Shown: positions 2,194-56,968, counted from the stretch's first letter. The stretch is DNA of 64,000 nt from an uncultured Anaerolineales bacterium (GCA_964513075.1 CAZELR010000006.1:5031-69030), one strand, 5' to 3'. Notes: generated by a model from the letters alone, not told the origin. Program-made: numbers and translations.

Positions 2194-2241
2194 GGGCGGC
2201 AAGACGCCCGTTTGCAAGGGCTCTCGATAGGACTTCAGATA

Positions 2242-3645: not shown

Positions 3646-3659
3646 AATAGGAGGAACCC

Positions 3660-4475: not shown

Positions 4476-4515
4476 GGTCGACGACGGCTGGCTGGCGAGA
4501 TAGGCGGGAGGCTCC

Positions 4516-5577: not shown

Positions 5578-5591
5578 GACAGGAGAACGTT

Positions 5592-6296
5592 ATGGCTCAA
5601 ATCACACGCCTTGAGGTCTATCAGGCCATTCTGGAGACTGGGCTGATCCCATTGTTCTACCAGGGGGAGATCGAGGCGGCCACTGAGCTCGCACTCGCGT
5701 GTGCGCGGGGCGGTGCACAGGTGGTTGAGTTCACCAATCGGGGCGAGGCGGCCTATCCCGTCTTCACGGAGTTGGCCCAGCGATTAACGCGCACCGCACC
5801 GTCCCTGACGGCCGCACCGGCCCCGCGGGTGATCCTGGGCGTGGGCTCCGTTGTGGATGCGCCCACGGCTGCGCTCTTCATCGCGGCCGGCGCGTCCTTC
5901 ATCGTGGGTCCGAACCTCAACCCCGAAATCGCGCGTCTGTGCAACCGCCGCAAGATCGCGTATGTGCCCGGGGCGTCTACCGAGAACGAGATCGGCCAGG
6001 CAGAGGAGTTGGGCGCCGAGATCGTCAAGGTTTTTCCCGGCGAGGTCCTCGGCCCGAAGTTTATTCGCGCGGTTATGGCGCCCTGTCCCTGGCATCGCCT
6101 GCTGCCCACCGGGGGCGTGGATGCGACGGAGGCGAGCGTCACGGAATGGATTCGCGCGGGTGCCGCCGCCGTCGGCATGGGTTCCAAGCTGATCGCGGCG
6201 GAGGCCGTCAAGGCACGGGCGTTCGCCGGTATCAGCGAGAAGGTCGACCAGGTGCTGCGCTGGATTCGTGCAGCGCGCGCGCTGGAATCGACATAA
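5592..6296 (+). CDS. eda: KDPG/KHG aldolase
   Basis: Motifs VEFTNRG, GVGSVVD, EIVKVFPG, LLPTGGV, VGMGSKL. Start at ATG 5592 after AGGAG. Confidence 0.92.
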   Translation: MAQITRLEVYQAILETGLIPLFYQGEIEAATELALACARGGAQVVEFTNRGEAAYPVFTELAQRLTRTAPSLTAAPAPRVILGVGSVVDAPTAALFIAAGASFIVGPNLNPEIARLCNRRKIAYVPGASTENEIGQAEELGAEIVKVFPGEVLGPKFIRAVMAPCPWHRLLPTGGVDATEASVTEWIRAGAAAVGMGSKLIAAEAVKARAFAGISEKVDQVLRWIRAARALEST

Positions 6297-6300
6297 TCTA

Positions 6301-7461
6301 CTACCCAGTACTCGGTTTTTCCTCCTGGAACTTTTCCCGCAACCAGGCAAAGGCGGCTGCCTGCATCGAGAGATCGAATCTGTGGGGGCCGGGGTAGAAT
6401 TGGCCGGTGTACTCATTCGCGTGGCCCACACCGGCGAAGTGGCTGCGCAGCCGGGCATCGGCAGCCCGCATGCCCGGCTCGGTGAAGAGATCGTCATCCA
6501 GGAGGTACTGCACGAGCAGGGGGACCGGCGCGCGGCAGGCCGCCAGGTCGGGCCAGTCCCCGTGCCGCGCCCACCCGAAGGGGAACAGCATCCAGGTGTG
6601 CGACATGTTGTGGTCGAGCAGCCCCTCGTAGGTGCTCATCAGACCGACGATGACTGTGGCCGCAATGTCGTTGTGGGTGGCAGTGAGCAGCGCCGCGCGG
6701 TTGCCGCCGCCCGAAAGGCCCAGGCAGCCTACCCGATCGCCGCACACATCGGCCCGCGACCGGAGGTAATTGGCCGCAATGCGGTCCTCGTGGCTGACGA
6801 CGCCGGCCAGGCTGGCGCCCAAGGCGTTGCAGTACTTCGCTACATAGTGCTCGTGCAGGCCCGCCGCCGCGTTGTACGCAGCGACCTCGGGCGGCGCGTC
6901 CCAGGCAGGGCTGTTGTCGGCCCGGAGCAGCGCGCTGGCCGCGCTGCGCACTTCCGCCGGCATGGTCTCCACGGGAAAGCGCCGGCTGCCCCACAAGAAG
7001 GCGTCGGGTATGAGAACGATGAACCCCGCGCGTGCCAGGGCATTGGCGTAGGCCCGGCCGCCGTAGTATTGTTCCCGGTAGCGTGCCAGCACCTCAGGCG
7101 GGGCGTCGGGACCATCGGCGATCTTCTCCTTGCCGTAGTACTTGAACCCGCCATGATCGTGTAAGGCGATCAGGGCGGGCAGCGGCCGCTGCGCCTGGGC
7201 CGGCTTTAGAAGGTACGCATGCGTGCGCGGCCCGTAGCCCACCGACCAGGAAAGCTCCTCGCCGGCCAGTCCCTCGTGCTCCCAGCGCCGCTCCACCCGG
7301 ACGTCCAACGGCTGCTCTGGCCCGCGGCAGAAGCCCAGGGCGTCGCGCACCAGCGCTTGCGTCTGTGGGCCGGGCGCGGCGATGGGGTAGAGCGGTCCCT
7401 GTCGTCGCGCTTCGTCGATAAGGTCGCTGAAGATGCCGAGATGTTGATAGTGCTGTCCCAT
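6301..7461 (-). CDS. Alpha/beta hydrolase (dienelactone hydrolase / Abhydrolase_7-like esterase)
   Basis: Motifs ALHDHGG, nucleophile elbow GLSGGG, C-terminal GPHRF histidine. Confidence 0.75.
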   Translation of the reverse strand: MGQHYQHLGIFSDLIDEARRQGPLYPIAAPGPQTQALVRDALGFCRGPEQPLDVRVERRWEHEGLAGEELSWSVGYGPRTHAYLLKPAQAQRPLPALIALHDHGGFKYYGKEKIADGPDAPPEVLARYREQYYGGRAYANALARAGFIVLIPDAFLWGSRRFPVETMPAEVRSAASALLRADNSPAWDAPPEVAAYNAAAGLHEHYVAKYCNALGASLAGVVSHEDRIAANYLRSRADVCGDRVGCLGLSGGGNRAALLTATHNDIAATVIVGLMSTYEGLLDHNMSHTWMLFPFGWARHGDWPDLAACRAPVPLLVQYLLDDDLFTEPGMRAADARLRSHFAGVGHANEYTGQFYPGPHRFDLSMQAAAFAWLREKFQEEKPSTG

Positions 7462-7525
7462 GCTTTGTTCTCCGAATGCACGCTGTGGGGACGAGAGGCT
7501 TCGTACGCAGCCGGGAGGCTGCTGC

Positions 7526-8263
7526 CTATAAGGGGGCGATTCCTCCCAGGCGCTCCACCAGCGCCGCCAGGTGTGCCGCCCAAACCCAGGGCTCTGCTAA
7601 CAGTGCGATCTGCGTGGCACGGACAGGAGTCCAGTCTTGGGCGGCCAGGAGGTAATCGGGCGGTGAGTTCTCACAAACCTCGTTGTCGCCGCGCGGTTCA
7701 TCCTCCACGATGAGAGCGATGCGACCGCCGCGACAGAAGAGGGCGAAGTCTGCTACGTACTGGGGTGAGTCCTCGCGTAACGGATATTGGCGTTCAGCTT
7801 CCAGATCCGCCTCTTTCAAGGCCGCCCACAAGGCTTCCTGGCCGCTGCTCCTGGCCCAGAGATCGTTGATTTCTTGCGCCTGGTATAGGCGCGCCATGGT
7901 GGTGGGAATGAAGGTGATGCGGCGCAGCCGGCGGCTGGGGATCGGGTCGGGCAGGGGCACGAGCGGACCCAGCTCGACCCGGTAGTAGCGCTCTTCGGCA
8001 CGCGGGTGCGCCGGTTCTTCGGGGATCAATTCGCGACGGGTCACGATGCGGTAGCCGCGCACTGGCGCGTGCCACTGGACGCGCCAGCGTTCTTCGCTTG
8101 AGAAGCTCCCGGTTTGATAGAACGCCAGGTGCTCTGCGGCTATACGGCGCGGCGCTCGGTTCAGCGGAATGCGATACCACCCCTGCTCGCGCGCGCGCGC
8201 CAGGTCAGCGGGATGATTCACGACGACAACCAGGACAGGGCTGTCGTTCATAGGGCTGTTCAT
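7526..8263 (-). CDS. EVE/PUA-like N-terminal domain fused to a degenerate DUF559-like endonuclease domain
   Basis: N-domain VLVVVVN...GWYRIP...LAFYQT...RYYRVELGPL...RRITFIPTT. C-domain EALWAALK...ERQYP...YVADFALFC. ATGA overlap with uvsE. Confidence 0.55.
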   Translation of the reverse strand: MNSPMNDSPVLVVVVNHPADLARAREQGWYRIPLNRAPRRIAAEHLAFYQTGSFSSEERWRVQWHAPVRGYRIVTRRELIPEEPAHPRAEERYYRVELGPLVPLPDPIPSRRLRRITFIPTTMARLYQAQEINDLWARSSGQEALWAALKEADLEAERQYPLREDSPQYVADFALFCRGGRIALIVEDEPRGDNEVCENSPPDYLLAAQDWTPVRATQIALLAEPWVWAAHLAALVERLGGIAPL

Positions 8264-9207
8264 CGAAGTTGTGCTGCCAAGGCAGGCGCGTAGCGGGCCA
8301 GATCAGCGCGGAGTTGGATCAGGGCCAGGTCCTTGGCTCGCGCTTCCAGCATCACGTCGAACTCGCGCAGCCCTTGCGCCAGTGTCAACAGGTCGATAAA
8401 TTCAAATGGATTGACATAATCTGAATGATAATTCCACCGGGTCCGCTTAAGTTGGGCAGCCTCCGTCGTGGAATCGTCTTCGACACGCCACTCGGTGCGC
8501 GGCGTGCTGAAATGGATTTTGGGCCGGACATCGGCGGGCCAGGTTGCCAGGCACGCGGCCAACGCATCGCGGGGCGTTCTGCCGTCGGGGTTGCAGAGCC
8601 GGTGATGCAGATTGTCGAACACCAGACGGATTCCTGTGCGTTCGTGCACCCAGAGCACATCGGCCACGCCGAAACGCGTGTCGTCATTCTCTAGCACCAG
8701 TCGTTGTGCGATCGCCTGGGGCAGGGTGCCGAAGGTGCGCGCGAAACGTTCGCGCGCCGAGGCTATGTCGCCGTACACGCCGCCCAGGTGGGTGACGATG
8801 ACAGCGTCTGGCCCCAGCCCCATGCCATCGAGGATGCCGGCCTGCACCCCAAGCTCAGCGCTGCTGCTGGCCACCAGGGCTTCATCCGGAGAGTTGAGCA
8901 GGATGTATTGGGCCGGGTGGAAGGAGAGGCGCAGGCCGGCCGCGCGGGCGAGTCCCCCGACTTCTGCTAACTCGGCCGCGCAGTCTGCGACCTGCTGATG
9001 GAACTGAGGCAAATCCGGATGCGTGGCATAGGGCGCCAGGTCATCAGCCATGCGATACATCGTGATGCCCGCGGACGAAAGGTAGGCGAAGATGTCGCGC
9101 AGATAAGCCAGGCTGACGCTCAGGTGCGGCCCGTTCTGCCAGCGACGGCTGTCGTGGCTTTTTAATTCAGGCCGGGCCAGCGGTTTGACAACGAATCCCA
9201 GGCGCAC
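8260..9207 (-). CDS. uvsE: UV DNA damage endonuclease
   Basis: Motifs RLSFHP..Y..LNSP, LVLENDD, LVFDNLHH, RPKIHFS, HSDY, DVMLEA..KDLAL. GTG start 6 nt after AAGGAG. Confidence 0.92.
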   Translation of the reverse strand: MRLGFVVKPLARPELKSHDSRRWQNGPHLSVSLAYLRDIFAYLSSAGITMYRMADDLAPYATHPDLPQFHQQVADCAAELAEVGGLARAAGLRLSFHPAQYILLNSPDEALVASSSAELGVQAGILDGMGLGPDAVIVTHLGGVYGDIASARERFARTFGTLPQAIAQRLVLENDDTRFGVADVLWVHERTGIRLVFDNLHHRLCNPDGRTPRDALAACLATWPADVRPKIHFSTPRTEWRVEDDSTTEAAQLKRTRWNYHSDYVNPFEFIDLLTLAQGLREFDVMLEARAKDLALIQLRADLARYAPALAAQLR

Positions 9208-9228
9208 GATGTTCTCCTTTCGACCAGT

Positions 9229-9312
9229 GCTGCCGCTGCTGCTGCCGCTGCTGCTGCCGCTGCTGCTGCCGCTGCTGCTGCCGCTGCAGTTGCAGTTGCC
9301 GCTGCAGCCGCA
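9229..9312. repeat. CNG-type tandem repeat (GCTGCCGCTGCT)n
   Basis: Four perfect 12-mers (9229-9276), one 11/12 copy (9277-9288), then degenerate hexamers to 9312. Intergenic between uvsE and the 9336 ORF. Confidence 0.95.
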
Positions 9313-9319
9313 TTATAAT
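9312..9319. promoter_or_regulatory. Palindromic ATTATAAT: candidate bidirectional -10 element
   Basis: TATAAT reads on + (9314-9319) and on - (9317-9312), between two divergent genes. A weak -35 TTGCAG lies at 9290-9295 on +. Confidence 0.55.
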
Positions 9320-9335
9320 AACAGGTGGAGATTTC

Positions 9336-10391
9336 ATGTCGATTATCCTGCAAGGTGCGTTGATGCCGCTGCGCCATGTGTGGCGGCGCCATACATGGCG
9401 GCGCATAAACGTACTCTGGTTGTTTTTAGTGCTCGTGGCTGCGCCGGCAGACGCTGAAACGCTCTCCCCAGGGTATTGGGAGCAGACGCCATTGCCGCAA
9501 ACCGGCCTGGCGACGTTTTATGCGCCGGGGCTGATGGAGCACGTGCAAAGTTACCGCGCAGCTCAAGCCGAGATTGCCGCGTGTCCGGAGTGCGTGGGCT
9601 CCGTGGCCCTCTTGCGCGCGGGCGACATCGGCCGCAAGGTTTGGTTGCAACCCCCTATGGGCGGGCCGGTCGGCCCCTTCCTGGTGGTAGATTGCGCGCG
9701 GCAGCAGGACGTGTCGCCATTGCTGGCCCGGAACTGGGCAGTGGACGTCAGCTACGAACTGGGTCAGATTTGGGGAATGGCACGTCCCCTGGACGGTGTC
9801 ACGGTGCTGGAGGATCCGGCGGATGCCCTGCCAGGCAACCCGTTCGGCGTGCCTACGCCGTTCGCCGTGCTTCCCGAGCAGGTCGTGATCAGCACGCCAA
9901 CCTCAACACCACCCGGCAGGCCGTCTGCGCCGACGCCGTGGCCAACGCGTCTGCCGGAATTGCTGCCCGGCGGCGCCTGGCCGTTGCCAGCCGCCTCAAC
10001 GCCGATCCCCCCGCCACCTCCGGGTCCCACACCGCTGACCCCGGTCGTGACAACTCCTACACCTGTGGCAACCCTTCAGAGCGCCGGCCGTGCCCTTTTG
10101 CCCACGGACACACCTGAGCCGCTGCCCGCTCAATCGGCCATCCCGGCTGAGGATAACGTATCTCTCGGGCACGCTGGTGTGGCCCTGTTGGACCCGATTG
10201 CCACGCCTGTAAGCCAGCTCCCTTCCTGGCCCACAGCCTCAGTAACGCCACGGTCACCGACCCGCACCCCTCGGCCCGATCTGACACCGCTTCTGCCTGG
10301 CGCCGATGCGGTGACCGAGACAATACCCAGCGCAAGCCCCGGCTTTTTCGCGCGCCTGTGGCAAGTTATTGTTGAGGCTTTCACCCGCTAG
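9336..10391 (+). CDS. Secreted protein with RlpA-like double-psi beta-barrel domain and Pro/Thr-rich tail
   Basis: Signal-like RRINVLWLFLVLVAAPADA, then GLATFYAPG...GRKVWL...GPFLVVDC...VDVS, then a long P/T-rich region. Start could also be 9363. Confidence 0.55.
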   Translation: MSIILQGALMPLRHVWRRHTWRRINVLWLFLVLVAAPADAETLSPGYWEQTPLPQTGLATFYAPGLMEHVQSYRAAQAEIAACPECVGSVALLRAGDIGRKVWLQPPMGGPVGPFLVVDCARQQDVSPLLARNWAVDVSYELGQIWGMARPLDGVTVLEDPADALPGNPFGVPTPFAVLPEQVVISTPTSTPPGRPSAPTPWPTRLPELLPGGAWPLPAASTPIPPPPPGPTPLTPVVTTPTPVATLQSAGRALLPTDTPEPLPAQSAIPAEDNVSLGHAGVALLDPIATPVSQLPSWPTASVTPRSPTRTPRPDLTPLLPGADAVTETIPSASPGFFARLWQVIVEAFTR

Positions 10392-42999: not shown

Positions 43000-43763
43000 C
43001 GCATCAGTGTCAGCATACGCTTGCCTATAATTTGGCGGAAGTTGGCTCCCTGACCCACCGCTGCCAGCACCGCAGGGATATCGGTCACCACCGTGCCTGA
43101 GATCGCGTCGACACCGTAGTCAAACAGAAGCGGTGTCAGGGGAGTTGTGGCGCCCAAGACCAACACATAGGCTTCAGGGCGGCATAAGGCTGCCAAACTC
43201 TCAAAGGTGCCGTTTACTAACGTCATCCCAGTGATCGCCACTACGTCGGCCTGAGGGAGCACGGCAGGCGCCTCAGAAGCAGGCAGATCGCCTGGACCAG
43301 GATTAAGCTCCAGCACCCAACACCTGTCGGCTGCCTGATACACCTCGGGTACAAAGGGGAAGTGGCCCACGATGGCCACCCTGCGCCCGCTGCCCCGCTC
43401 CAGGATCAACTTCTCGGCATTGCGATCAACGCACGCAGCTAAATCCACCTCCAGCAACGCATTGAAAGCCGCAAAGCCGATACTCCGCTCTGTCAAGCTC
43501 TCGGAGCGCATCCAGCCCGCCAAATCAAATGCAGGCAAACCGACGAGTTTGCCTGCGTCGCGCACCGCCGGTTGGCCATGTTCCAAGTCATGCACGATCT
43601 GCGTCGAGGCCAATCCCGCACGCGTGCCGCGCACAGTCTCGACCACCACAACGGTCCAATGCGTGCCGACGCGGATATCGACCACAGGGCCATTCAAAGA
43701 TCGCGCAGCCAATAACCGATCGATCAACGCCGCGCGGTCACTCCCATTCGCTGATTCGTTCAT
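42996..43763 (-). CDS. DUF364 family (Rossmann-like) protein
   Basis: Motifs G.HWT.V, SIG.AA.NA, VAIVGHFPF, VLEL, ADVVAITG.TLVNGT...L, LG.TTPL. Confidence 0.8.
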   Translation of the reverse strand: MNESANGSDRAALIDRLLAARSLNGPVVDIRVGTHWTVVVVETVRGTRAGLASTQIVHDLEHGQPAVRDAGKLVGLPAFDLAGWMRSESLTERSIGFAAFNALLEVDLAACVDRNAEKLILERGSGRRVAIVGHFPFVPEVYQAADRCWVLELNPGPGDLPASEAPAVLPQADVVAITGMTLVNGTFESLAALCRPEAYVLVLGATTPLTPLLFDYGVDAISGTVVTDIPAVLAAVGQGANFRQIIGKRMLTLMR

Positions 43764-43774: not shown

Positions 43775-46048
43775 CTACCCAACCATGCTGAGTCCAATCC
43801 GCCCGCGCTCACGGTCAATGCTGATCACGGTGACATCGACCACGTCGCCTACACTCACTACCGCGTGTGGGTTCCGCACGAACTGCTTGGCCATCTTGCT
43901 GACGTGCACCAGCCCATCCTGTTTGACGCCGATATCGACAAAAGCGCCAAAATCAACAACGTTACGCACCGTGCCCTTCAGAACCAGCCCCTCGGCCAAG
44001 TCGTCAATGCTCAGCACGTCGCGGCGCAGGATCACTGGCGGTAGATCTGAACGCGGGTCGCGGCCCGGCCGCAACAACGCCTCCACGATGTCATGCAAAG
44101 TCGGCTCACCGATGCCGAGAAGCGAGGCGGTGGCCGACCAAACATCGGTCCCATTTTCCTCGCACCACTTTCGAAGCCGCTCCGGGAGGTCATGCATGCG
44201 CAGGTTCAGGCCTGCAAGCTCTAGCAGCGCCCTGGTGGCGTCATAGCTCTCCGGATGGATCGTCGTATTGTCCAGTGGGTTGCGACTATCCGATACACGC
44301 AGGAAGCCGGCGGCCTGCTCGAACGCCTTCGGTCCCAGTCCTTTCACCTTCTTGAGTTCGGAGCGCGAAGCAAAGGGGCCATTTTCATCCCGGTGTGCGA
44401 CGATGGCGCCTGCCACCTTCTTGCTGATGCCCGCCACGTAGCTTAGTAGCGCCGCTGATGCAGTATTGACGTCAACACCAACATAATTGACGACTGACTC
44501 CACTACCGCATCTACCGCCCCGGCCAGCGTCTTCTGGTCCACGTCGTGTTGATAGAGGCCCACACCAATGCTTTGTGGATCAATCTTGACCAGCTCGGCC
44601 AATGGATCCTGCAACCGCCGGGCGATCGAAACCGCGCCGCGCATAGAGACGTCCAGATCGGGGAACTCAGCGCGAGCCACATCGGACGCGGAGTAAACCG
44701 ACGCGCCCGCTTCACTGACCATCACATAAGCAAGATGAGACGCAGTCTGCACACGGCTGGACGCGGACGAACGCGGATTATCTTTTTGATCTGCTCTGTG
44801 TGAATCCGTGTGAATCTGTGTCCCCTGAATCAACTCCGCGACTAACGCCTCGGTCTCACGACTGGCAGTGCCGTTTCCGATGGCGATCACGCTGATCCGG
44901 TCCTGGTCGATCAACCCAGCAAGAATGTGCAGCGATTTGTCGCGGTCGTTGCGCGGCTCGTGGGGGTAGATCGTGGCTGTGTGTAGCAGCTTGCCGGTGG
45001 CATCTACTGTCGCCACCTTGCAGCCGGTACGGAAACCAGGGTCGATACCCATCACAGCGCGCTCCTTCAGCGGCGGCTGGAGCAGCAAGTTGCGCAGATT
45101 GGCTGCAAAAACCTGGATGGCATGATCATCAGCGTAATCGCCCAACTGCCCACTCACCTCGCGCTCAACCGAGGGGCGTAGGAGGCGCTCGTAGCCATCT
45201 TCAACGGCCAGGCGCACCTGCTGTCCCGCAGCCGTTGCCGGCATTGCAATCCAGGCCGCGGCCACATCGTTGACGATGGAAGCATCAGGGGTTTCGATAG
45301 TCACCTTAAGGCTGCCGTCCGCCGCTCCTCGCTTGAGCGCCAACCATTGGTGCGGCTGGACTGCTCGGAGCGCAGTGCGGAACTCATAATAGACGCGATA
45401 ACGCCCCTCCTTATCAGCATCATCGTCCGCGCGCCGGCTGATGACGAATCCCTCCGCGGCGAAACGCCGGCGCACCAGGCCCCGCGTCGACGCATCGTCG
45501 CTCGCCTGCTCCCCAAGGATATCGCGCGCACCGGCCAGGGCAGCCGCCGCATCCGGCACCTGGTCGGTAATATACTCCGCAGCCCATTGTAGGGGCGATC
45601 CCTCCATGGTCGCCGTGGCAGAGGCAGACACGAGGGCGCCGCCTCGACATGCGGCCAGTAACACCTGCGCCAGCGGCTCCAACCCGCGCTCACGCGCGAT
45701 TTGGGCGCGAGTCTGGCGCTTGGGCTTATAGGGGCGGTAGAGGTCCTCCACGGCCTGAAGCGTAGCTGCAGCGTCCAGTTGCGCGGCCAGTTCGTCAGTC
45801 AGCTTGCCCTGCTCGGTAATCTCAGCCTTCACCGCTACCTTGCGTTCAGCCAGCTTGCGCAGGTAGTCCAGTCGGGTTTGGATGTCCCGAATCTGCACTT
45901 CATCCAGCCCGCCGGTAACCTCCTTGCGGTAACGCGCAATGAAGGGGATGGTGTTGCCGTCGTCCAGGAGCCTAACGGTGGCAGTGACCTGGGAAACGGA
46001 AATCTTAAGCTCGTGAGCGATGAGTTCGTTGATGGGAGGTAGAATCAA
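43775..46048 (-). CDS. tex: Tex-family transcription accessory protein (YqgF-like, HhH and S1 domains)
   Basis: Motifs IPFIARYRKE.TG.LDE, GIDPGFRTGCK, IGNGTASRETE, EAGASVYSAS, LQDPLAELVKIDP, FGAFVDIG. Confidence 0.95.
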   Translation of the reverse strand: MILPPINELIAHELKISVSQVTATVRLLDDGNTIPFIARYRKEVTGGLDEVQIRDIQTRLDYLRKLAERKVAVKAEITEQGKLTDELAAQLDAAATLQAVEDLYRPYKPKRQTRAQIARERGLEPLAQVLLAACRGGALVSASATATMEGSPLQWAAEYITDQVPDAAAALAGARDILGEQASDDASTRGLVRRRFAAEGFVISRRADDDADKEGRYRVYYEFRTALRAVQPHQWLALKRGAADGSLKVTIETPDASIVNDVAAAWIAMPATAAGQQVRLAVEDGYERLLRPSVEREVSGQLGDYADDHAIQVFAANLRNLLLQPPLKERAVMGIDPGFRTGCKVATVDATGKLLHTATIYPHEPRNDRDKSLHILAGLIDQDRISVIAIGNGTASRETEALVAELIQGTQIHTDSHRADQKDNPRSSASSRVQTASHLAYVMVSEAGASVYSASDVARAEFPDLDVSMRGAVSIARRLQDPLAELVKIDPQSIGVGLYQHDVDQKTLAGAVDAVVESVVNYVGVDVNTASAALLSYVAGISKKVAGAIVAHRDENGPFASRSELKKVKGLGPKAFEQAAGFLRVSDSRNPLDNTTIHPESYDATRALLELAGLNLRMHDLPERLRKWCEENGTDVWSATASLLGIGEPTLHDIVEALLRPGRDPRSDLPPVILRRDVLSIDDLAEGLVLKGTVRNVVDFGAFVDIGVKQDGLVHVSKMAKQFVRNPHAVVSVGDVVDVTVISIDRERGRIGLSMVG
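44751..44823. repeat. In-frame inverted micro-repeat element (period 10) in tex
   Basis: Left arm ACACGGCTGG/ACGCGGACGA/ACGCGGATTA; right arm CTGCTCTGTG/TGAATCCGTG/TGAATCTGTG; 17 of 20 positions pair on +. Confidence 0.8.
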
Positions 46049-46108: not shown

Positions 46109-48832
46109 TCACCCCTTCACGCGCTTCTGTAATTCATACAGCTTGTTGAGCGCGGCCAGCGGACTGAGGCTATTCACGTCGAGGGCGCGCAGCTCAGCAA
46201 TCACCGGATCTTCAGCGGAGAAAAGCGGGAGCTGGTGTAGGGTGGCAGGCAGAACCGAACGCCGCGGGCCAGCCGCGCCGGAGGCTTCCAGATCGGCCAA
46301 AATTTCCTGGGCGCGGGCGATCACCGGCTTAGGCAGACCGGCAAGCTGCGCCACATGAACACCATAAGAGCGGTCGGCTGCGCCGGGTGCAATCTTGTGC
46401 AGAAAGACAACGGTTTCGCCTTGCTCGGCCACGGCTACATTGAAGTTGACCACATGCGGCAGCCGCTCGGCCAGGTCGGTCAGTTCGTGGTAATGCGTGG
46501 CGAACAGCGTCTTCGCACGCAGGCCGGGGTGATTGTGAATGTACTCAACAACGGCCCAGGCAATCGCCAGACCATCATAAGTGCTGGTGCCGCGACCGAT
46601 CTCATCGAGGATCAGCAGCGACCGGCTGGTGGCATGGTGCAGAATGTTGGCAGCCTCCACCATCTCAACCATAAAGGTCGATTGGCCGCGTGCAATCTCA
46701 TCTGAGGCACCGATGCGGGTGAAGATGCGATCCACGAGCCCGATGTGCGCCGACTCGGCCGGCACGAAAGCCCCGATCTGTGCCAGCAGCACGATTAACG
46801 CCACCTGCCGTAGAGCCGTCGATTTGCCGGCCATATTGGGGCCGGTGAGGATAATGATGGCCTGTTCGGGTGAGAGGTACGCGTCGTTAGGCGTGAAAGG
46901 CTCCCCGGTCAGAAACTTCTCCACCACGGGATGCCGACCGGCCTTGATATCGATAATGCCGTCATCAGCCAGCCTGGGACGAATGTAGCGATTTACCTCA
47001 GCAACCTCAGCCAGCGCCGCAGCAACATCCAGGTCGGCGACAGCCGCCGCGATCGCAAGCAGTCGAGGCGCAGCCGCCGCGATCTGGGCTAGCACCCCGC
47101 GAAAGATCTGCCCTTCCAATTCCAGGATGCGTTCCTCAGCGTTGAGCACCAGTGATTCGTATTCCTTCAAGTCCGGCGTGATGTAGCGCTCCGCATTGAC
47201 CAGTGTCTGCTTGCGAATGTAATCCGCCGGCACCAGGCCGGCGTTGGCGGTGGTGACCTCGATGTAATAACCAAAGACCTTGTTGTAGCCAACCTTCAAC
47301 GACTTGATGCCAGTGCGCGTCCGCTCGACCGATTCCAGGTTAGCGATCCACATCTTGGCGTCGCGCGTAGCAAGATGAATACCGTCCAACTCGGCTGAAA
47401 AACCGGGGCGAATGATCCCGGTCGTGGCCAACGTCGCGGGCGGGTCGTCGGTAATGGCCTGCGCGAGAAGCGTGGCAATATCGGGGCAGGATTGAAGGTT
47501 CAAAGTTGAAGGCGGAGGGTCAGCGTTGATTGATCTTTCAACTTTTAGCTTTGAGCCTGTAGCCTGTAACTGATCTACGCGAGCCAACGCTTCGCGGATG
47601 CCCAACAGGTCACGCGGAAGTGCAATGCCCTGAGCGCAGCGGTTGGTCCAGCGCTCCAGGTCGCCGAGACCGCGCAGGACTTGGCGAAGCCCGGCGCGCA
47701 AGATGCCGTCTTGCTGCCAGGCAGCCACGGCGTCGAGCCGAGCATCGATAGCCGCGACATCCAGCAGCGGCTGACTAAGCCGCTTGCGCAGCAGGCGGCC
47801 GCCCATCGGGGTCAGGGTAGCGTCCAATACCCCCAAGAGTGAGCCTTGGGTGGAGCCGCCGCGGAGACTCTCGGTCAACTCCAGGTTGCGCCGCGTGGCC
47901 TCGTCAAGGGTCATGAACTCGGATGTGCTGTAAGTGCGCAAGCCGGCAAGCTGGGGCAGGCTGTCTTTTTGCGTTTCCTGTAGATACTGAAGCAGCGCGC
48001 CCGCGGCCCGAACCGCCAATGAACTATCGTCACAGCCGAAACCGGCCAGGGATGCGGCCCTGAAATGATCGAGCAGCGCCTGGCGCGCAGTGGTCTCTTC
48101 GAAGCGCCAGGCCACGTAAGGGGTAATATGGTAGGCTTGGGCAATCTGCACCGGCAGGGCATCGGAGGGATGGCGCTGGAGGCGCGACGCGGTTTGCGCG
48201 CTGCGGCCTTCGGGGCCACCCGACGACATGCCGGGCTCCTCTGTGCCTCCGCTCCTCTGTGCCCAGCGCGGGTCTTTGGCAGGATAAAGAAGCTCCGCCG
48301 GCGCCAGCCGGCTAAGCTCCTCAGAGACGCGGCGCAGGACATCCGCGCCATTGGCAATCTCAGTGACCGCAAACTCGCCGGTGGTGATGTCGGCATAGGC
48401 CAGGCCAGCCCTGAGCAGACGGCCTGTCGGCTCTGAGTCGAGCACCACCGCTACAACGTAATTGTTGCGCTTCTCAGACAGCAGCCCCGGCTCCACGAGG
48501 GTGCCGGGCGTCACGACCCGCCGCACGATGCGCGGCACTAGCTTTTCGCCTTTGGGAGGCTCATTGCCAAGCTGCTCAGCGATAGCTACCTTGTAACCGG
48601 CGTTGATTAGCTTGGCAATGTAGGTGTCGACCGCGTGGTAGGGCACACCGGCCAAGGGAACGCGCTGGTCCGCGCCCACGGGTCGCGAGGTGAGCACAAC
48701 ATCACAGACCGACGCGACAAGCTTGGCATCGTCATCGAAGGTCTCGTAAAAGTCACCCAGGCGGAAGAAAAGCACGATATCCGGGTACTGTTTCTTCAAC
48801 GCCAGGTACTGGGAACGCATAGGTGTCGTCAT
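46109..48832 (-). CDS. mutS: DNA mismatch repair protein MutS
   Basis: Motifs FFRLGDFYETF, GPNMAGKST, DRIFTRIGA.D....GQSTFMVEM, DEIGRGTST, FATHYHEL, SYGVHVA.LAG. Confidence 0.97.
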   Translation of the reverse strand: MTTPMRSQYLALKKQYPDIVLFFRLGDFYETFDDDAKLVASVCDVVLTSRPVGADQRVPLAGVPYHAVDTYIAKLINAGYKVAIAEQLGNEPPKGEKLVPRIVRRVVTPGTLVEPGLLSEKRNNYVVAVVLDSEPTGRLLRAGLAYADITTGEFAVTEIANGADVLRRVSEELSRLAPAELLYPAKDPRWAQRSGGTEEPGMSSGGPEGRSAQTASRLQRHPSDALPVQIAQAYHITPYVAWRFEETTARQALLDHFRAASLAGFGCDDSSLAVRAAGALLQYLQETQKDSLPQLAGLRTYSTSEFMTLDEATRRNLELTESLRGGSTQGSLLGVLDATLTPMGGRLLRKRLSQPLLDVAAIDARLDAVAAWQQDGILRAGLRQVLRGLGDLERWTNRCAQGIALPRDLLGIREALARVDQLQATGSKLKVERSINADPPPSTLNLQSCPDIATLLAQAITDDPPATLATTGIIRPGFSAELDGIHLATRDAKMWIANLESVERTRTGIKSLKVGYNKVFGYYIEVTTANAGLVPADYIRKQTLVNAERYITPDLKEYESLVLNAEERILELEGQIFRGVLAQIAAAAPRLLAIAAAVADLDVAAALAEVAEVNRYIRPRLADDGIIDIKAGRHPVVEKFLTGEPFTPNDAYLSPEQAIIILTGPNMAGKSTALRQVALIVLLAQIGAFVPAESAHIGLVDRIFTRIGASDEIARGQSTFMVEMVEAANILHHATSRSLLILDEIGRGTSTYDGLAIAWAVVEYIHNHPGLRAKTLFATHYHELTDLAERLPHVVNFNVAVAEQGETVVFLHKIAPGAADRSYGVHVAQLAGLPKPVIARAQEILADLEASGAAGPRRSVLPATLHQLPLFSAEDPVIAELRALDVNSLSPLAALNKLYELQKRVKG
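47492..47569. repeat. In-frame inverted heptamer-repeat element in mutS
   Basis: TTGAAGG TTCAAAG TTGAAGG, 22-nt spacer, CTTTCAA CTTTTAG CTTTGAG CCTGTAG CCTGTAA. Confidence 0.8.
48158..48263. repeat. In-frame hairpin with 16-bp tandem repeat in mutS
   Basis: GCTCCTCTGTGCCTCC/GCTCCTCTGTGCC tandem at 48235-48263; 48245-48263 pairs with 48158-48183 via bulged helices. Confidence 0.55.
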
Positions 48833-48833: not shown

Positions 48834-51137
48834 TTACGCGCCCAACACTACTTGTCCATAGGGATCGCCGTAGAGCACATAGGCTAACCAGGTGGGATTG
48901 GCGGCATCAGCCTGCTTGATAGCCAGACGCGCCGCGTGAAACGCCTGGCCAAGCGGTTGCTGTTTCCCCTCAAACGCGCCGAGGCCCCACAGGCGATCAT
49001 AGAACTCCCGGGCGAACTGTGCGGCCAGCACGTCATTCACCTCCCAGAGTGCGCCGAGGAAGGCGCTAGCCTCACAATCAAGAAACGTCTCGGCCCAGCC
49101 GCCCAGCTGCGTCAGGCCGATGCCCACCCGCCCGGAATGGCAAGCATTAAGAAATACAATGGGCTTGCTCTTGCGAATATACGGCTTTAAGGCGCCAACT
49201 GCAACAGGGGTCAGGAACTCGCTTCCCAGTTTGAGCTTCGACTCGTTGGCGCTGTCAGCGTTGAAGTTGCCATGACAGGCAAAGTGATAGAGATGGGTGC
49301 GGCCGGCCTGCAGAGCATCGTTAACCTCATCCAGCGATTTGAGCGGACCGCTGAGGCTGACCTCCCACTGACGACGATGCAGCTCGGTAAAGTAATCGGA
49401 CTCGGCCTGGGCAGCCTGCAGGTTGTCGGGCGGCGCCACCCACACGCCCTGAGTAAGCTTCACGCGGTCGGGCGCGCCGCGGCCGGCCACCCAGCGCGAG
49501 AGCCGGAACGTCTCGCACAAAGGTGGGTCGGTCGGCACCTCCCAAGGTTCATCCTCGCCCGGATCTTGCGGCGTAACCAACTCCCAGGGAATCCATGGAT
49601 CGTCTGTAGTAACCAGCATACTTTGCCCACGATATTTCTGGCGCAAGACCTTGCTGTATTCACGTTTCAGCTCATCCGAGAAAAGCTGATCGTAAAGCTG
49701 CACGCCGATAGCGGACAACTCCTGGTTCGCACGCCGCGTCTCGTCGGCAGGGCGCGTCGCGACCGATTTTTTGGCCAGGTCACTGAGGCGATTAAAGATC
49801 GGCTGCAGGAAGGTCAACGGATCGTCTCGCAGCAACTTCGTGCCGACCCGCTTGAAGTTGTAGTCGCCGCCCCCGGGCGAATGCAGCATGTAATCCAACG
49901 TCTTACGGTCAGCCGAAAGCATGATGCGCAGCTCCAGGTCAGGCGCTCTCGCCTCTGTGCCCAGCACCGGCGAGGCAATCGGCGCCAGCGGCACCACAGC
50001 GTTGGTCAATTGCTTCATCGCGGCTGCGTCTTCTACCACCTCGGCCTCGAACGAGACCGTCAGTATCCGACGACTGAACTGCTCAAAGTCTACGCTAACG
50101 CGCTTCGTTCCGGCCGACTCCGGCTTGAGAAAGAAGATCAGAGGCTCGCAGTCGCGCTCTTTTTCGATCTTGACCTGTCGAGCATAGGAGCCAACGCCGC
50201 TCACCGCTTCACCGCCGATGGTCTCATCGGTCACCTCAAAGCCCTCCGGCCGGATGACAACTGTCAGCGGGCTAAGTTTAAGGCTCATGCGAGCCTCATC
50301 GGCAATGCCTCTGGCGCCGGATTGAAAATGACCGGCCACATGGACAATCAACGGCACAGCGCCCTGATCAATCAGCACTTTGTTGGGGAAGTGGACGTTA
50401 GCGTAGCGGATCACATCGTCGGCCACCGGTTCAAGCGAACGGGTTTCAGTGATCCCGTACGATGGGGAGATCGGCGCCTTGGCAACAGGCCCGGCGCCTC
50501 CTAACGATGGCGGGAATATCCCACCGCGCGTCTGCTGGCCGGGAGCCCACATCTGTGCATCCCGATCATCCAGGAGCCGCACGACGCTGGGATAGCCACG
50601 CAGCAGGACCTTGATAGCCCGCAGGTAGGCCTCAGCAACCGCGCGGTCAACAGCGCGCTCCGAATGGGCTGCACGTAGTGCGCTAAGCTGCGCCAGTTCG
50701 TCGCCGGCAAGACGCGCCTGATGCGTCTCGACCAGTGCGTCGATCTGGGCGGTCAGGCCGATCGGATCACGATACCGGCGAAATTCTACAATGAATACCA
50801 TGCGCTGCAAGACAAGCTCGCGCTGTTCTGCGGATAGCGAACCGACTCCGCCAACACCCCGAGAGCCAAGCCTGGGCTGAAGGCTCACCTGGCCGCCCTC
50901 CAATAATCCCGTCACCTCGGCAGGCAGGGCTTGCCGCACCGGCCAGAGGGTGTTGAGGAACGCGCTGGCCGAACCGGCCGCGTTGATATCGTCTTTTGTG
51001 GCGATATCCGGCCCATACTCGCGCACGGCCTCCTCAATTACGCTACGAACCTCTACCGGCAGCGTCGGCCACGCGGCCAGAATGCCGTCAAGGATTGGGA
51101 TGATTGCGTTTGATACGGCTGCTGCTGCAAAATTCAT
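48834..51137 (-). CDS. CHAT (caspase HetF-associated) domain protease with N-terminal helical region and central beta-rich domain
   Basis: Motifs PWIPWEL, HFACHG (His622), VFLNACHS (Cys666), FLGALWEVND, WLAYVLYGDP. No signal peptide or TPRs. Confidence 0.88.
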   Translation of the reverse strand: MNFAAAAVSNAIIPILDGILAAWPTLPVEVRSVIEEAVREYGPDIATKDDINAAGSASAFLNTLWPVRQALPAEVTGLLEGGQVSLQPRLGSRGVGGVGSLSAEQRELVLQRMVFIVEFRRYRDPIGLTAQIDALVETHQARLAGDELAQLSALRAAHSERAVDRAVAEAYLRAIKVLLRGYPSVVRLLDDRDAQMWAPGQQTRGGIFPPSLGGAGPVAKAPISPSYGITETRSLEPVADDVIRYANVHFPNKVLIDQGAVPLIVHVAGHFQSGARGIADEARMSLKLSPLTVVIRPEGFEVTDETIGGEAVSGVGSYARQVKIEKERDCEPLIFFLKPESAGTKRVSVDFEQFSRRILTVSFEAEVVEDAAAMKQLTNAVVPLAPIASPVLGTEARAPDLELRIMLSADRKTLDYMLHSPGGGDYNFKRVGTKLLRDDPLTFLQPIFNRLSDLAKKSVATRPADETRRANQELSAIGVQLYDQLFSDELKREYSKVLRQKYRGQSMLVTTDDPWIPWELVTPQDPGEDEPWEVPTDPPLCETFRLSRWVAGRGAPDRVKLTQGVWVAPPDNLQAAQAESDYFTELHRRQWEVSLSGPLKSLDEVNDALQAGRTHLYHFACHGNFNADSANESKLKLGSEFLTPVAVGALKPYIRKSKPIVFLNACHSGRVGIGLTQLGGWAETFLDCEASAFLGALWEVNDVLAAQFAREFYDRLWGLGAFEGKQQPLGQAFHAARLAIKQADAANPTWLAYVLYGDPYGQVVLGA

Positions 51138-51162
51138 AATCGCGCTCCTCGACGTGACACTA

Positions 51163-52452
51163 TCAAAAATCGCCGTTCAACCACTGCACCAAACGGTTCC
51201 AACCCGTAACTTGCGGAAACATGAGCTCGCGGTAGATCACCAACTCCTTCTGACGCTGGCTGAGCGGCTTGGTCTCTGGAGGCAAGTAGACCGCCAGTCC
51301 AGTAGCTCGCTCGTACTGCGGCCGATAGGCAACCCGGAGCACCGGCGCCGCAGACGTGCGCGCCTGCAAATGCGCGTAGAGAGCCCGGGCTGCCGTATTC
51401 ACTTCGGGGTAGTTCTCCCACTCGGTCTTGCTCGCCAGGAGGCGCGCAAAATCTCCCAGGTCGCAGTAGTTGCGATCCTGGAAGACGAGCGCCTCGCGAC
51501 GGGCGGCCCTGGCGAGTTCATGAAGGACTGCTTCCTGCCCGCGCGCCAACACTACATCCACCAGCATCCTGGCCAGCGCTTCGGTCTCCTGTATCGCTGA
51601 CAGGCGAATGGCAGACTGGGTGACGGTTTCATCCTGCCGGGTTTGTGCGTTGTAGCTTTTGGCGTAATCCCGCACAATGCGATCGGCCAGTGCTTCGGGC
51701 GTCATCCCTGGCTCAGCATTGATGCCTTGCAGGATCAGCGTATATGGCCAACCGTCCATTGGCTCCACTTCCTGCGACCCGACAAAATAGTCGGCATGCT
51801 CAGCCAACTCGCGAGCGCCCTCAACCATAGCCATAAGACACGCATCCATGCCGATGATGTCCAGCTTGCGGCTCGTAATGGCCTCTGCCTCTCTAAAGGC
51901 CCGATGCAGGTCTTTGGTGTCCAGAAAATCCTTGCTGGTGTCATCGTATGCGATGGGCCGGGTGGTCTCGCCCTCGGTTATCTTGCGCAACGTGCTGCGA
52001 AAGAGCGCGCCGTGGGTCTTGTGCGTGGTATCCCCAATATCGCGCACAGACTCATAATGATCCACGTCCAGCCAACCTGTACCGTGATTCCAAATCACCA
52101 GAGCAAAGTGATCGGCCGGATAGTGCTGCATGCCATGCACCACGAAGTCCCTCAAGGTGTCAGGACTGCCGGTGTTAATCTCCTTCAGCTTCTGCACAAC
52201 GCTGCCCGCCATGCCGATACCCTGGCGCACCTCCACCAAGTAGCTTTCGTCCACAGTATCGAATAAGCATACCACCGCGCATGCGTCGGTGGTGCCCACC
52301 TTCGCCATCTCCCAAATATCCTTATAGCCGGCCGACGTCATCTCGGCCATCAGCTTTTTGACGCCAGTCGCAGTTTGAAAGGCCTTACCGTTGTCACCGG
52401 CCATGTAAACCATCAACGTCCAAGGGCGCTTTTTTTGTGGGACGGGCTGCAT
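51163..52452 (-). CDS. Clostripain-family (C11) cysteine peptidase, no signal peptide
   Basis: Motifs WTLMVYMAGDN, INTG.P.TL..F, LVIWNHGTGW (His123), IAYDD, IIGMDACLM (Cys205), SQEVEP..GWPY. ATG 52452 follows AAGGAG. Confidence 0.9.
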   Translation of the reverse strand: MQPVPQKKRPWTLMVYMAGDNGKAFQTATGVKKLMAEMTSAGYKDIWEMAKVGTTDACAVVCLFDTVDESYLVEVRQGIGMAGSVVQKLKEINTGSPDTLRDFVVHGMQHYPADHFALVIWNHGTGWLDVDHYESVRDIGDTTHKTHGALFRSTLRKITEGETTRPIAYDDTSKDFLDTKDLHRAFREAEAITSRKLDIIGMDACLMAMVEGARELAEHADYFVGSQEVEPMDGWPYTLILQGINAEPGMTPEALADRIVRDYAKSYNAQTRQDETVTQSAIRLSAIQETEALARMLVDVVLARGQEAVLHELARAARREALVFQDRNYCDLGDFARLLASKTEWENYPEVNTAARALYAHLQARTSAAPVLRVAYRPQYERATGLAVYLPPETKPLSQRQKELVIYRELMFPQVTGWNRLVQWLNGDF

Positions 52453-52552
52453 CGGATGCTCCTTTTGGGTTACAAGCAGGGCCAATATGCGTTGACGCAA
52501 GACGTGCCACCAAGCCATCGGTCACCTCCGCCGGTGATGTCGTGCTGGTGCG

Positions 52553-52582
52553 ATTATAGCACAAGTTCGCTGGCACGGTCAA
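52553..52582 (-). promoter_or_regulatory. sigma70-type promoter for clostripain-CHAT-mutS
   Basis: On -: TTGACC (52582-52577), 18 bp, extended TGC-TATAAT (ends 52553). Confidence 0.72.
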
Positions 52583-55222: not shown

Positions 55223-56968
55223 TTGCGACGCTTCCTGACTGACAACCAAGAACAACTTCTGAAGGCTGAGCGCGAGCAGCTCGTTGCGCTGCGTACGCCC
55301 CTAGCCAGCCTGGATGCGCCGGACAGTGATATCGCGCTCTTGGAGCGCGCTGTGCTCCAGTTGGATGAGCTTTTTCTGTTGGTGATTGTGGGTGAGTTTA
55401 ACTCCGGCAAGTCTGCATTTATCAATGCGCTGCTGGGCCAACGTTTCCTCACAGAAGGTGTCACCCCCACCACCTCGGCGATCCACATCATCAAGCACGG
55501 TAAAGAAGCCAGCCAAACCACCACTGAACGCGACATGCTTCTGGTCACTTATCCGGTCGAGTGGCTCCGGGACATCAACATCGTGGATACGCCCGGCACC
55601 AACGCGGTCATCCGCCGCCACCAGGAGATTACCGAGGAATTCATACCGCGTGCAGACCTGATCCTATTCGTGACCTCGGCCGACCGACCCTTCAGTGAGA
55701 GTGAGCGGGAGTTCATCACGCGCATCCGTGAATGGGGCAAAAAGGTTGTCTTCATCGTAAACAAAATCGATATCCTGGAGGGGCCAGCCGACGTCCAACA
55801 CGTGACCGAGTTCGTCGCCAAGAACGCGCGGGACCTGATCGGTCGCGCGCCCACGGTGTTCGCCGTGTCAAGCCGGCAGGCCCGCCAGGCTAAGGAAACT
55901 TTCGACGCGGATGAACGCACGCGACTTTGGAATGCGAGCCGTTTTGAGCCGCTGGAAAGCTACATCTTGAAGACGCTGGATGAACGCGAGCGCCTGCGGC
56001 TGAAACTAGCCAGCCCGATCGGCGTCGCCCAACGCTTGGTCGAGCGTTATCTAGAACTGGCCGAGTCGCGCAAGACGCTACTTAAAGAGGATGTGGCCAC
56101 CGTACGCACCATCGACGCGCAGTTGGTGGCGTATGAGGCAGACATGCGCCGCGAATTCAAGTATCACCTGAGCCATGTGGACAACGTGCTCTATAAAATG
56201 TCAGAGCGTGGAAGCGATTTTTTTGACGAGACAATCCGCCTCCAACGCATCTTTGACCTGATGAACGCTGACCGGGTGCGCGGCATGTTCGAACGGGCAG
56301 TGGTTGCTGACACCTCGCAACAAGTCGAGCTGCATACGCGCGATCTGATCGACTGGCTGGTCGACCAGGACTTCCGTCAGTGGCAGGCGGTTACCGATTA
56401 TCTAAATAAACGCATCAGCCGGCACCAGGACAGTGTCGTTGGCCAGGTTGGCGGCACGTTCGAGTCCAACCGCCAGGCGCTGCTGGAGTCGGTAAGCCAG
56501 GCCGCACGTCAGGTAGTGGCCACCTATGATCACACAAGCGAGGCACGGGAGCTAGGGGATTCAGTTCAGCGAGCCGTTGCGCAGACTGCCATTGTGGAAG
56601 TGGGCGCAATCGGCCTTGGCGCGCTGCTCGTGAAGCTGCTGGCTACTACGCTTGCGGATGTGACAGGCGTGCTGGCGGCGGGTGCAGTGGCGGCCCTCGG
56701 CTTTTATGTGATCCCCAATAAACGTCGCCGTGCCAAACAAGATCTGCAGCACAAAATCAACGACCTGCGCAGCCGGCTGACCGCTGCGCTCACCGGGCAG
56801 TTTGAAAGCGAGCTGGAACGTTCACTTTCGCGGATCCGCGCGGCCATGCGGCCCTACACGCGCTTTGTAGAGACCCAACAAGCCACCCTGGGCCAGACCA
56901 CAACCACGTTGCGCGCAGCCGATGAGCATCTGCAAAAACTGACCGCGCAGATCGAGACCGAGGTTTAA
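55223..56968 (+). CDS. Bacterial dynamin-like GTPase
   Basis: Motifs GEFNSGKS, TPTT, VDTPGTN, NKID, VSS; helical stalk with a hydrophobic paddle near the C-terminus. Confidence 0.88.
   Translation: MRRFLTDNQEQLLKAEREQLVALRTPLASLDAPDSDIALLERAVLQLDELFLLVIVGEFNSGKSAFINALLGQRFLTEGVTPTTSAIHIIKHGKEASQTTTERDMLLVTYPVEWLRDINIVDTPGTNAVIRRHQEITEEFIPRADLILFVTSADRPFSESEREFITRIREWGKKVVFIVNKIDILEGPADVQHVTEFVAKNARDLIGRAPTVFAVSSRQARQAKETFDADERTRLWNASRFEPLESYILKTLDERERLRLKLASPIGVAQRLVERYLELAESRKTLLKEDVATVRTIDAQLVAYEADMRREFKYHLSHVDNVLYKMSERGSDFFDETIRLQRIFDLMNADRVRGMFERAVVADTSQQVELHTRDLIDWLVDQDFRQWQAVTDYLNKRISRHQDSVVGQVGGTFESNRQALLESVSQAARQVVATYDHTSEARELGDSVQRAVAQTAIVEVGAIGLGALLVKLLATTLADVTGVLAAGAVAALGFYVIPNKRRRAKQDLQHKINDLRSRLTAALTGQFESELERSLSRIRAAMRPYTRFVETQQATLGQTTTTLRAADEHLQKLTAQIETEV

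Follow-up and report, generated by a model that had tools for sequence, protein, structure and literature searches.

Nearly all C11 (clostripain-family) proteases characterised so far come from gut anaerobes and are exported, and to our knowledge the activation of PCaspase, reportedly a C14-type enzyme, by SAVED-CHAT is the only described bacterial case of one clan-CD protease activating another. The present analysis concerns a pair of adjacent genes encoding a C11 and a CHAT protease, both of clan CD, in a stretch of 64,000 nucleotides (nt) from an uncultured Anaerolineales bacterium (GCA_964513075.1, CAZELR010000006.1:5031-69030), hereafter the window, in which positions are counted from the first letter. 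Among the C11 enzymes, PmC11 has the catalytic dyad H133/C179 and the S1 residue D177, and its activation needs intramolecular cleavage after K147, which is aligned with R190 of clostripain (PMC4850288); in the case of fragipain, also a C11 enzyme, site-specific cleavage serves to activate pro-toxins (PMC8406203). With regard to CHAT, the SAVED-CHAT protein of type III-B CRISPR activates PCaspase in a bacterial protease-to-protease cascade (10.1101/2023.06.23.546230), and HetF, the founding CHAT protease, is a cytoplasmic enzyme of filamentous cyanobacteria that specifically degrades PatU3 and couples division and differentiation (PMC9457339, PMC8406250). Caspase-like and CHAT proteases, with proposed peptidase cascades, were also described in the NTP-dependent conflict systems of Kaur et al. 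2020, which are enriched in filamentous and multicellular bacteria and in whose description neither clostripain nor C11 is mentioned (PMC7159879). The literature search found no published C11-CHAT system, nor any work in which CHAT, defence or conflict systems are treated together with clostripain or C11, in agreement with the initial annotation of this DNA, which knew of none.

Gene-neighbourhood analyses revealed that the association of C11 with CHAT is not a chance arrangement. The initial annotation had proposed that the two proteases, encoded in one operon and separated by 25 bp, form a cassette for conflict or defence, and had suggested a survey for recurrent pairing. Coordinates and spacing were found to be correct by open reading frame (ORF) and Pfam analyses, and the survey was based on a C11 profile scan with one genome per species, which gave 79 loci (best 80 stretches of 543 relatives); neighbours in the retrieved loci were annotated with hidden Markov models built for the C11 and CHAT families. 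A CHAT-family gene lies directly after C11 in about 40 Chloroflexota genomes, and this adjacency persists at 32-40% protein identity to the window, with upstream genes that differ. The carriers constitute a branch of the Chloroflexota composed of Anaerolineales-like and Caldilineales-like lineages. Three independent fusions of the two genes were also detected: in L017 the spacer is read through, giving a protein of 1186 amino acids (aa); in P0151 it is read through at a different junction (1211 aa); and in an Ardenticatenales metagenome-assembled genome (MAG; L073:6561-11132) a protein of 1523 aa combines an N-terminal region of about 500 aa of no assigned family, C11, a Peptidase_M17_N-like segment and a full CHAT domain. 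Apparent fusions in L058 and L025 were rejected as longest-ORF artefacts, in which an alternative frame crosses the C11 gene. In the long-read MAGs L117 (L117:7315-12351, the closest relative, with 95% C11 identity), L010, L026, L027 and L115, CHAT and mutS are split into fragments, which are probably assembly frameshifts rather than pseudogenes.

In all, at least two phyla have a partnership of C11 with CHAT, and the architecture of CHAT differs between them. C11 relatives of filamentous cyanobacteria (Nostoc, Calothrix, Tolypothrix, Fischerella, Scytonema and others; 36-40% identity) are located in a conserved cluster with the order CHAT (about 727 aa), CHAT (about 395 aa), coiled-coil protein, Reg_prop beta-propeller, Hsp70, C11, HipA-like and HIRAN, as in L045:84-17012 (Nostoc sp.) and likewise in L048, L049, L037, L078 and L059; NACHT, MoxR-AAA and vWA genes adjoin the cluster on the other strand. 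No description of this CHAT/Hsp70/C11 cluster was found in the literature searched. A small CHAT gene is also found immediately upstream of a gammaproteobacterial C11 relative. In Geobacter hydrogenophilus (L076:6007-9269) and in L079, the C11 relative is directly downstream of an nSTAND1 NTPase with a prokaryotic YEATS domain, a partner of another, sensor-like kind for this C11 subfamily.

The family assignments of the initial annotation, which had suggested profile checks for Peptidase_C11 and CHAT, held for both proteins. C11 matched Peptidase_C11 (PF03415) with an E-value of 3.9e-42 and 145.5 bits (cutoff 25.8), and its family profile matched the C11 structures 6mzo, 6n9j, 9cip (clostripain) and 3uws/4yec (PmC11) of the PDB; the score against the clostripain equivalog was 24.7 bits (cutoff 550). 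Alignment to PmC11 placed H123, R137, D203 and C205 on H133, K147, D177 and C179, and these four residues are invariant in 78 of 78 C11 homologues from Chloroflexota, cyanobacteria, Nitrospirae, Geobacter and others. The protein thus shares with its family the His/Cys dyad, the S1 Asp at Cys-2 and a basic residue at His+14, where PmC11 cleaves itself, and on account of these PmC11-equivalent invariant residues it is predicted to be an Arg/Lys-specific, self-processing zymogen that opens its active site by a cut after R137. Its probable role, as for fragipain, is the maturation of another protein through one or a few cleavages after Arg.

The window C11 differs from the characterised enzymes in several respects. 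First, its His-to-Cys segment is roughly twice as long, with 76-121 aa in the homologues (median about 95) compared to 46 in PmC11 and 55 in clostripain, and contains the conserved basic residues R137, R152 and R165. Second, its gene is tied to that of a CHAT protease, and in some cases the two are fused. Third, clostripain is secreted and a predicted signal peptide was removed from the PmC11 construct (PMC4850288), whereas no h-region was found in either start form of the window C11, nor a membrane segment, by a hydropathy heuristic that is not a dedicated predictor. The start shared by the homologues (MQPVPQKKRPW) leads directly into strand 1 of the fold, and the subfamily is therefore predicted to be cytoplasmic. 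An in-frame ATG further upstream would give a protein of 451 aa (51163-52518, minus strand). The resulting 22-codon extension is conserved in L021, L002, L003 and L006, is interrupted by stops in L001 and is absent in L004, L005, L008, L011, L013 and L014. The first ATG (52518) was rejected as a universal start because the extension is broken in L001, the second-closest relative examined, and in the closest relative, L117, the gene is called at 429 aa. The extension is short, charged at its end and, by hydropathy, not like a signal peptide; it could serve as a leader peptide, form an amphipathic helix at the N-terminus or mark a second, longer isoform.

The CHAT protein matched PF12770 with an E-value of 2e-15 and 57.4 bits (cutoff 24), the match spanning only aa 566-758, and its family profile had no sequence match in the PDB. 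H622 and C666 are invariant in 58 of 58 CHAT-family members, so that both dyads read in the initial annotation (H123/C205 and H622/C666) are intact and the two enzymes are catalytically competent at the level of their residues. An AlphaFold2 (AF2) model built on 18 homologues, with an overall predicted local distance difference test score (pLDDT) of 70, together with Pfam, which detected no TPR, agreed with the earlier description of a CHAT protein without TPRs that carries two helical N-terminal blocks and a beta-rich middle domain. The latter is an Ig/CARDB-like beta-sandwich, with Foldseek matches to CARDB, MG and transglutaminase beta-sandwich domains; it is related to DUF7363 (E 0.054 for the window protein, 8.7e-5 for the family member L108), which is also a precomputed Pfam domain of P0020. 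The N-terminus has a KD19 value of 1.77, although it lacks a basic n-region and carries charged residues in the orthologues, and it is modelled with pLDDT above 80 as helix 1 of a compact bundle; by the same hydropathy heuristic, no signal peptide or membrane segment was found in the CHAT protein. The initial reading that neither protease has a signal peptide was thus supported. A loop at aa 518-559 (49461-49586, minus strand) is rich in invariant Trp, Pro and Cys, with a mean identity of 0.56, yet has a pLDDT below 50, and may be a partner-binding or regulatory segment.

Further structural analyses revealed that the N-terminal region of CHAT is a family-specific, prodomain-like module. When modelled alone, aa 1-200 reached a pLDDT of 88, and no PDB fold match (Foldseek best E 3.8) and no Pfam match, even at E 10, were obtained for the module. 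A profile search among 1.84 billion proteins retrieved 41 representative clusters, mostly of the same architecture of about 750 aa or fragments of it, together with a single C11 fusion and a small number of giant, repeat-rich proteins. A Death-like, CARD or EAD adaptor identity was rejected in view of the missing PDB and Pfam matches and of this near-confinement to one architecture, and for the latter reason the module is not a promiscuous adaptor. The giant proteins (P0162, P0166, P0173, P0176 and P0179; 1155-3882 aa) contain 5-14 tandem repeats that match sub-segments of about 40-60 aa of the module, which may reflect true homology or Ala/Leu-rich helix composition.

Among the folded parts of the protein, conservation is lowest in the helical bundles (mean identity 0.33, compared to 0.58 in the catalytic lobe), and the disordered linker that follows them has a mean identity of 0.16. 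Within this linker, most of the 58 CHAT members have an Arg 4-9 residues past the conserved W197, in a hydrophobic-Arg-Gly/Ser motif that corresponds here to R204, and close relatives retain a second, TR|SLEP-like motif. Being exposed and disordered in the model, Arg-bearing, and placed at the junction of prodomain and protease, the linker is a candidate cleavage site for C11. Activation by limited proteolysis appears plausible, since in C11 both the S1 Asp and the Arg at the self-processing position are retained, and CHAT has a disordered, Arg-bearing linker after a prodomain-like region.

Among described proteins, the best Foldseek matches of the CHAT catalytic region were to TPR-CHAT/Csx29 of the type III-E CRISPR Craspase (E 4e-7, about 390 columns), likewise a cytoplasmic multidomain CHAT protease with a helical N-terminus. 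The two differ in that identity is 11-12% and the window protein has no TPRs, has an Ig-like domain inserted and has N-terminal bundles without a known fold match; neither Cas7-11/gRAMP nor Csx30 was present among the annotated flanking ORFs, no scan aimed at CRISPR arrays having been made. In concept, SAVED-CHAT with PCaspase is the working model that comes closest to a module of two proteases. That system depends on a cyclic oligoadenylate trigger acting through SAVED and on a CRISPR context, whereas the partner in the window is C11 and Pfam detected no SAVED or C14 domain in C11 or CHAT. HetF has an architecture different from that of the window CHAT, and we know of no C11 partner for it; as a chromosomal, non-defence CHAT protease, it resembles the present case and indicates that CHAT enzymes can be developmental regulators.

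The organization of the locus is summarised in Table 1. The strong shared promoter proposed in the initial annotation (TTGACC and TATAAT separated by 18 nt) matches 11 of the 12 positions of the sigma-70 consensus and has TG before TATAAT, and its extended -10 box is kept upstream of C11 orthologues in at least eight other genomes (L001, L002, L003, L004, L005, L011, L013, L014, L021). Such conservation is better evidence for a promoter than the consensus match; promoter-like sites in the region (4, compared to 3.0 expected) are not significantly above chance. Genomic context analyses also revealed a point missed in the initial annotation, namely that the probable operon also includes mutS and tex. 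The mutS ATG begins 1 nt past the CHAT stop codon (TAAtATG), and the consensus and hairpin scan found no terminator or usable promoter at this junction. A 9/12 match at 48858-48831 was rejected as a mutS promoter within the end of CHAT, because its -10 box overlaps the mutS ATG and it is thus unable to serve the conserved MTTPMR start of mutS. From the promoter to position 43531 on the minus strand, the hairpin past tex is the only long-stemmed terminator candidate; the operon is therefore probably C11-CHAT-mutS-tex, read as a single transcript, and translation of mutS is probably coupled to termination of CHAT. A weak terminator-like hairpin (9 pairs, 3 GC) with a T-run is located at the extreme end of the C11 coding region (51173-51196, minus strand) and could dampen read-through toward CHAT; hairpin matches of this kind are no more frequent in the region than expected by chance. 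With respect to base composition, G+C is 0.64-0.71 in positions 1-10000 of the window, compared to 0.57-0.62 in the remainder.

Table 1. Features of the C11-CHAT locus and of the probable operon (positions in the window)
Feature	Position	Strand	Description
Promoter	52553-52582	-	-35 TTGACC 52582-52577, 18-nt spacer, extended -10 TGcTATAAT 52561-52553
Optional N-terminal extension or leader of C11	52453-52518	-	22 in-frame codons, MAWWHVLRQRILALLVTQKEHP, own GGAGG Shine-Dalgarno
C11 gene	51163-52452	-	429 aa from the ATG common to all homologues
C11 H123	52086-52084	-	catalytic His; codon CAC, checked by eye
C11 R137	52044-52042	-	predicted self-processing site, His+14
C11 D203	51846-51844	-	S1 Asp, Cys-2
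C11 C205	51840-51838	-	catalytic Cys; codon TGT, checked by eye
C11/CHAT intergenic spacer	51138-51162	-	25 bp
CHAT gene	48834-51137	-	767 aa; stop TAA 48836-48834
CHAT N-terminal region	50553-51137	-	aa 1-195; helical bundles 1-86 and 100-195, disordered loop 87-97 between them (AF2)
CHAT disordered linker	50421-50543	-	aa 199-239, pLDDT about 26; candidate cleavage site R204, codon 50528-50526
CHAT beta-sandwich middle domain	50028-50417	-	aa 241-370; Ig/CARDB-like, related to DUF7363 (AF2, Foldseek)
CHAT protease domain	48834-49940	-	aa 400-767 (Pfam, Foldseek, AF2)
CHAT H622	49274-49272	-	catalytic His; codon CAT, checked by eye
CHAT C666	49142-49140	-	catalytic Cys; codon TGC, checked by eye
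mutS	46109-48832	-	907 aa; full MutS domains I-V (Pfam)
tex	43775-46048	-	Tex_N, YqgF-like, HHH and S1 domains (Pfam); 60 nt after mutS
Intrinsic-terminator-like hairpin past tex	43531-43556	-	11-bp stem, 6 GC pairs

The linkage to mutS was used to follow the inheritance of the two genes. mutS lies after CHAT or C11 in about 40 loci, even where one of the proteases has been lost, and synteny with tex is common to many loci; the mutS linkage is broken in L012, L029, L031, L032 and L108-L111. In 20 genomes, pairwise identities of C11 and CHAT were correlated with each other (r = 0.85) and with those of MutS (r = 0.85 and 0.69), and the proteases diverge faster than MutS, with mean identities of 0.50 and 0.42 compared to 0.73. 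Sampling anchored on mutS was added to avoid the bias of protease-anchored loci. Neither protease gene was found within 5 kb upstream of mutS in any of 80 Chloroflexota mutS loci outside two clades (Anaerolineaceae, Leptolinea, Dehalococcoidia, Ktedonobacteria and others), and a class-wide core gene was rejected on this basis. Among 76 loci retrieved by a clade-typical MutS peptide, 13 have CHAT upstream, with or without C11, and many relatives with a similar MutS N-terminus carry neither gene. All protease-linked mutS genes fall into two neighbouring clades of the MutS trees, within which only 4 adequately flanked members lack both protease genes; these are simple neighbour-joining trees of the retrieved loci, and prevalence inside the clades is approximate. 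The pattern points to one or very few origins and mainly vertical descent, with occasional loss of one or both genes, which are evidently non-essential; it is typical of a lineage-specific chromosomal function and unlike that of mobile defence islands.

The account that we favour is a lineage-specific, mostly vertically inherited, cytoplasmic two-protease module that acts by limited proteolysis at Arg sites, and in full it is given about an even chance of being right. The two proteases would be made from the operon in latent form, C11 as a cytoplasmic zymogen and CHAT as a pro-protease; C11 would open its own active site by cutting after R137, and the two proteins would interact, probably as a physical complex. 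Active C11 would then cut the CHAT linker, with R204 as the candidate site, and free the catalytic part from its helical prodomain, to act on substrates encoded elsewhere. The output would most likely be regulated intracellular proteolysis, in a stress or cell-fate response or in targeted protein turnover. The coupling of C11 and CHAT, taken by itself, is supported and held with higher confidence than the whole account.

Several observations weigh against this account. C11 is linked to mutS without CHAT in L008, L015, L019 and L036, and CHAT is linked to mutS without C11 in two Caldilineaceae groups, so that neither protease strictly needs the other, unless the partner is encoded elsewhere. 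The Arg motif of the linker is missing in L009, L010, L058 and L099, and the positive loci were mostly found via the proteases, which makes within-clade prevalence only a rough figure. A role in defence would still be compatible with the lack of a sensor or effector beside the pair. Finally, the long His-to-Cys segment of C11 could be a trans-activation loop cut by CHAT, in which case the direction of the cascade would be reversed. According to this serious rival, CHAT, with its long, sensor-like prodomain, would be the initiator, and would cut the expanded loop, with its several conserved basic residues, of a prodomain-less C11 acting as executioner. The long-prodomain enzymes among animal caspases are initiators, which by analogy would favour such an order, and C11-only genomes are consistent with C11 delivering the output. 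However, characterised C11 enzymes process themselves intramolecularly at the site equivalent to R137 (PMC4850288), and CHAT-only genomes exist as well; the reverse direction is regarded as improbable, with C11 retained as initiator in the favoured account.

The initial annotation had placed the pair in conflict or defence, and of this proposal the functional link between the proteases stood, on the strength of adjacency, fusions and cyanobacterial clusters, while the defence label did not. As an abortive infection device, an infection cue would activate the initiator protease and the second protease would degrade cellular proteins, killing or arresting the cell. The resemblance of the CHAT domain to Csx29 of Craspase as its closest structure, a marginal PADLOC match to BovA, the existence of bacterial protease-to-protease cascades (SAVED-CHAT to PCaspase, 10.1101/2023.06.23.546230), the fast-evolving N-terminal helical domains and the loss of genes in some lineages are in line with such a role. 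So are the distant C11 homologues located beside nSTAND1 in Geobacter, or beside Hsp70, beta-propeller, NACHT and MoxR-vWA genes in cyanobacteria, which resemble the systems of PMC7159879 in that they adjoin STAND, MoxR-vWA or Hsp70 genes. The window locus itself differs from those systems, since its operon has no MoxR-vWA, STAND or GTPase core with EAD-type adaptors, no Death-like adaptor and no variable effectors. No sensor NTPase, nucleotide-signal domain or effector was found in the operon of the window, and none of the gasdermin, MBL, alpha/beta-hydrolase, Pepco or EACC1 effector genes known from protease-effector modules (PMC12642450) was found in the operon or its flanks. This agrees with the initial remark that no sensor or terminal effector adjoins the pair.

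The flanking genes are of the housekeeping type. They encode YigZ/IMPACT, a CapA-like protein (PGA_cap), a dynamin-like GTPase and UvrA on the upstream, divergent side and MutS, Tex and DUF364 downstream, in an order shared by the closest relative and many other loci. PADLOC was run on both proteases and eight neighbours. For the proteases it returned only BovA, the CHAT protein of Borvo, in a marginal match (E 2.6e-4, 18 bits) that covers 89 of 711 profile positions around the active site and thus falls short of full-length similarity. The neighbour matches were generic, pairing the UvrA ABC ATPase with mad3 and the dynamin-like GTPase (55223-56968, plus strand) with LeoA/LeoBC of Eleos at about 1e-24. 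The GTPase is probably a housekeeping bacterial dynamin, because it is a single gene in a UvrA-dynamin-CapA-YigZ synteny conserved across the clade, and the neighbour matches were rejected as evidence of a defence island since these genes represent conserved housekeeping synteny. No close relatives were found on plasmids, where all relatives are less than 33% identical, or on viral contigs, where the single relative is 30% identical. In place of a mobile defence island, the pair has a fixed chromosomal position upstream of mutS in its operon, housekeeping flanks and co-divergence with mutS, and other effectors do not share its N-terminal module as a promiscuous adaptor. An anti-phage function is therefore considered unlikely, and the context favours a cell-intrinsic role in stress, turnover or cell fate.

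A further possibility is that two independent housekeeping proteases share a promoter with no cascade or complex, for example in quality control or in the turnover of nutrient peptides. The persistence of each gene alone in some lineages, and the presence of the unrelated housekeeping genes mutS and tex in the operon, would fit this view. It is nevertheless quite doubtful in light of the three independent fusions, the adjacency retained at 32-40% identity while upstream genes change, and the co-occurrence of C11 and CHAT in a second phylum with a different CHAT architecture. Very unlikely, finally, is a genome-integrity module in which the proteases would be tied to MutS, for example to regulate MutS levels or, in filaments, to convert an excess of mismatch or damage signals into proteolysis or death of the cell. 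The 1-nt junction without a terminator or usable promoter, the nearby uvrA and the adjacency to mutS, which is kept in about 40 loci even where one protease has been lost, point toward it. However, an ancestral gene order passed on vertically accounts for this adjacency just as well, and the linkage is not kept in the loci named above; this is also an ordinary MutS1, and neither protease lies within 5 kb upstream of it in any of the 80 sampled loci outside the two clades.

The C11-CHAT module is real, and it is not an established system of phage defence. Neither the two enzyme families nor the concept of protease cascades in bacteria is new in itself; the module is set apart by a cytoplasmic C11 subfamily, a CHAT protein with a prodomain of no known fold, the recurrent C11-CHAT fusion and the conserved operon link to mutS. 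As a long shot, the pair could form a self-contained initiator/executioner cascade, co-transcribed and translationally coupled with MutS in the stable chromosome of a filamentous lineage, through which surveillance of genome integrity, or another signal from within the cell, would be connected to caspase-like proteolysis and to cell fate; if true, it would be a prokaryotic counterpart of mismatch-repair-dependent apoptosis and not an anti-phage device. More broadly, a whole cytoplasmic C11 subfamily appears tied to a second clan-CD protease, in contrast to the exported enzymes characterised so far, and it belongs to the stable chromosome of filamentous Chloroflexota and not to a mobile defence island; filamentous cyanobacteria also have relatives of it. 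If the two enzymes process one another, they would represent a second, mechanistically independent bacterial protease-to-protease cascade after that of SAVED-CHAT and PCaspase, and such mutual processing would bear on the part played by caspase-like cascades in the cell-intrinsic regulation or cell death of multicellular prokaryotes.

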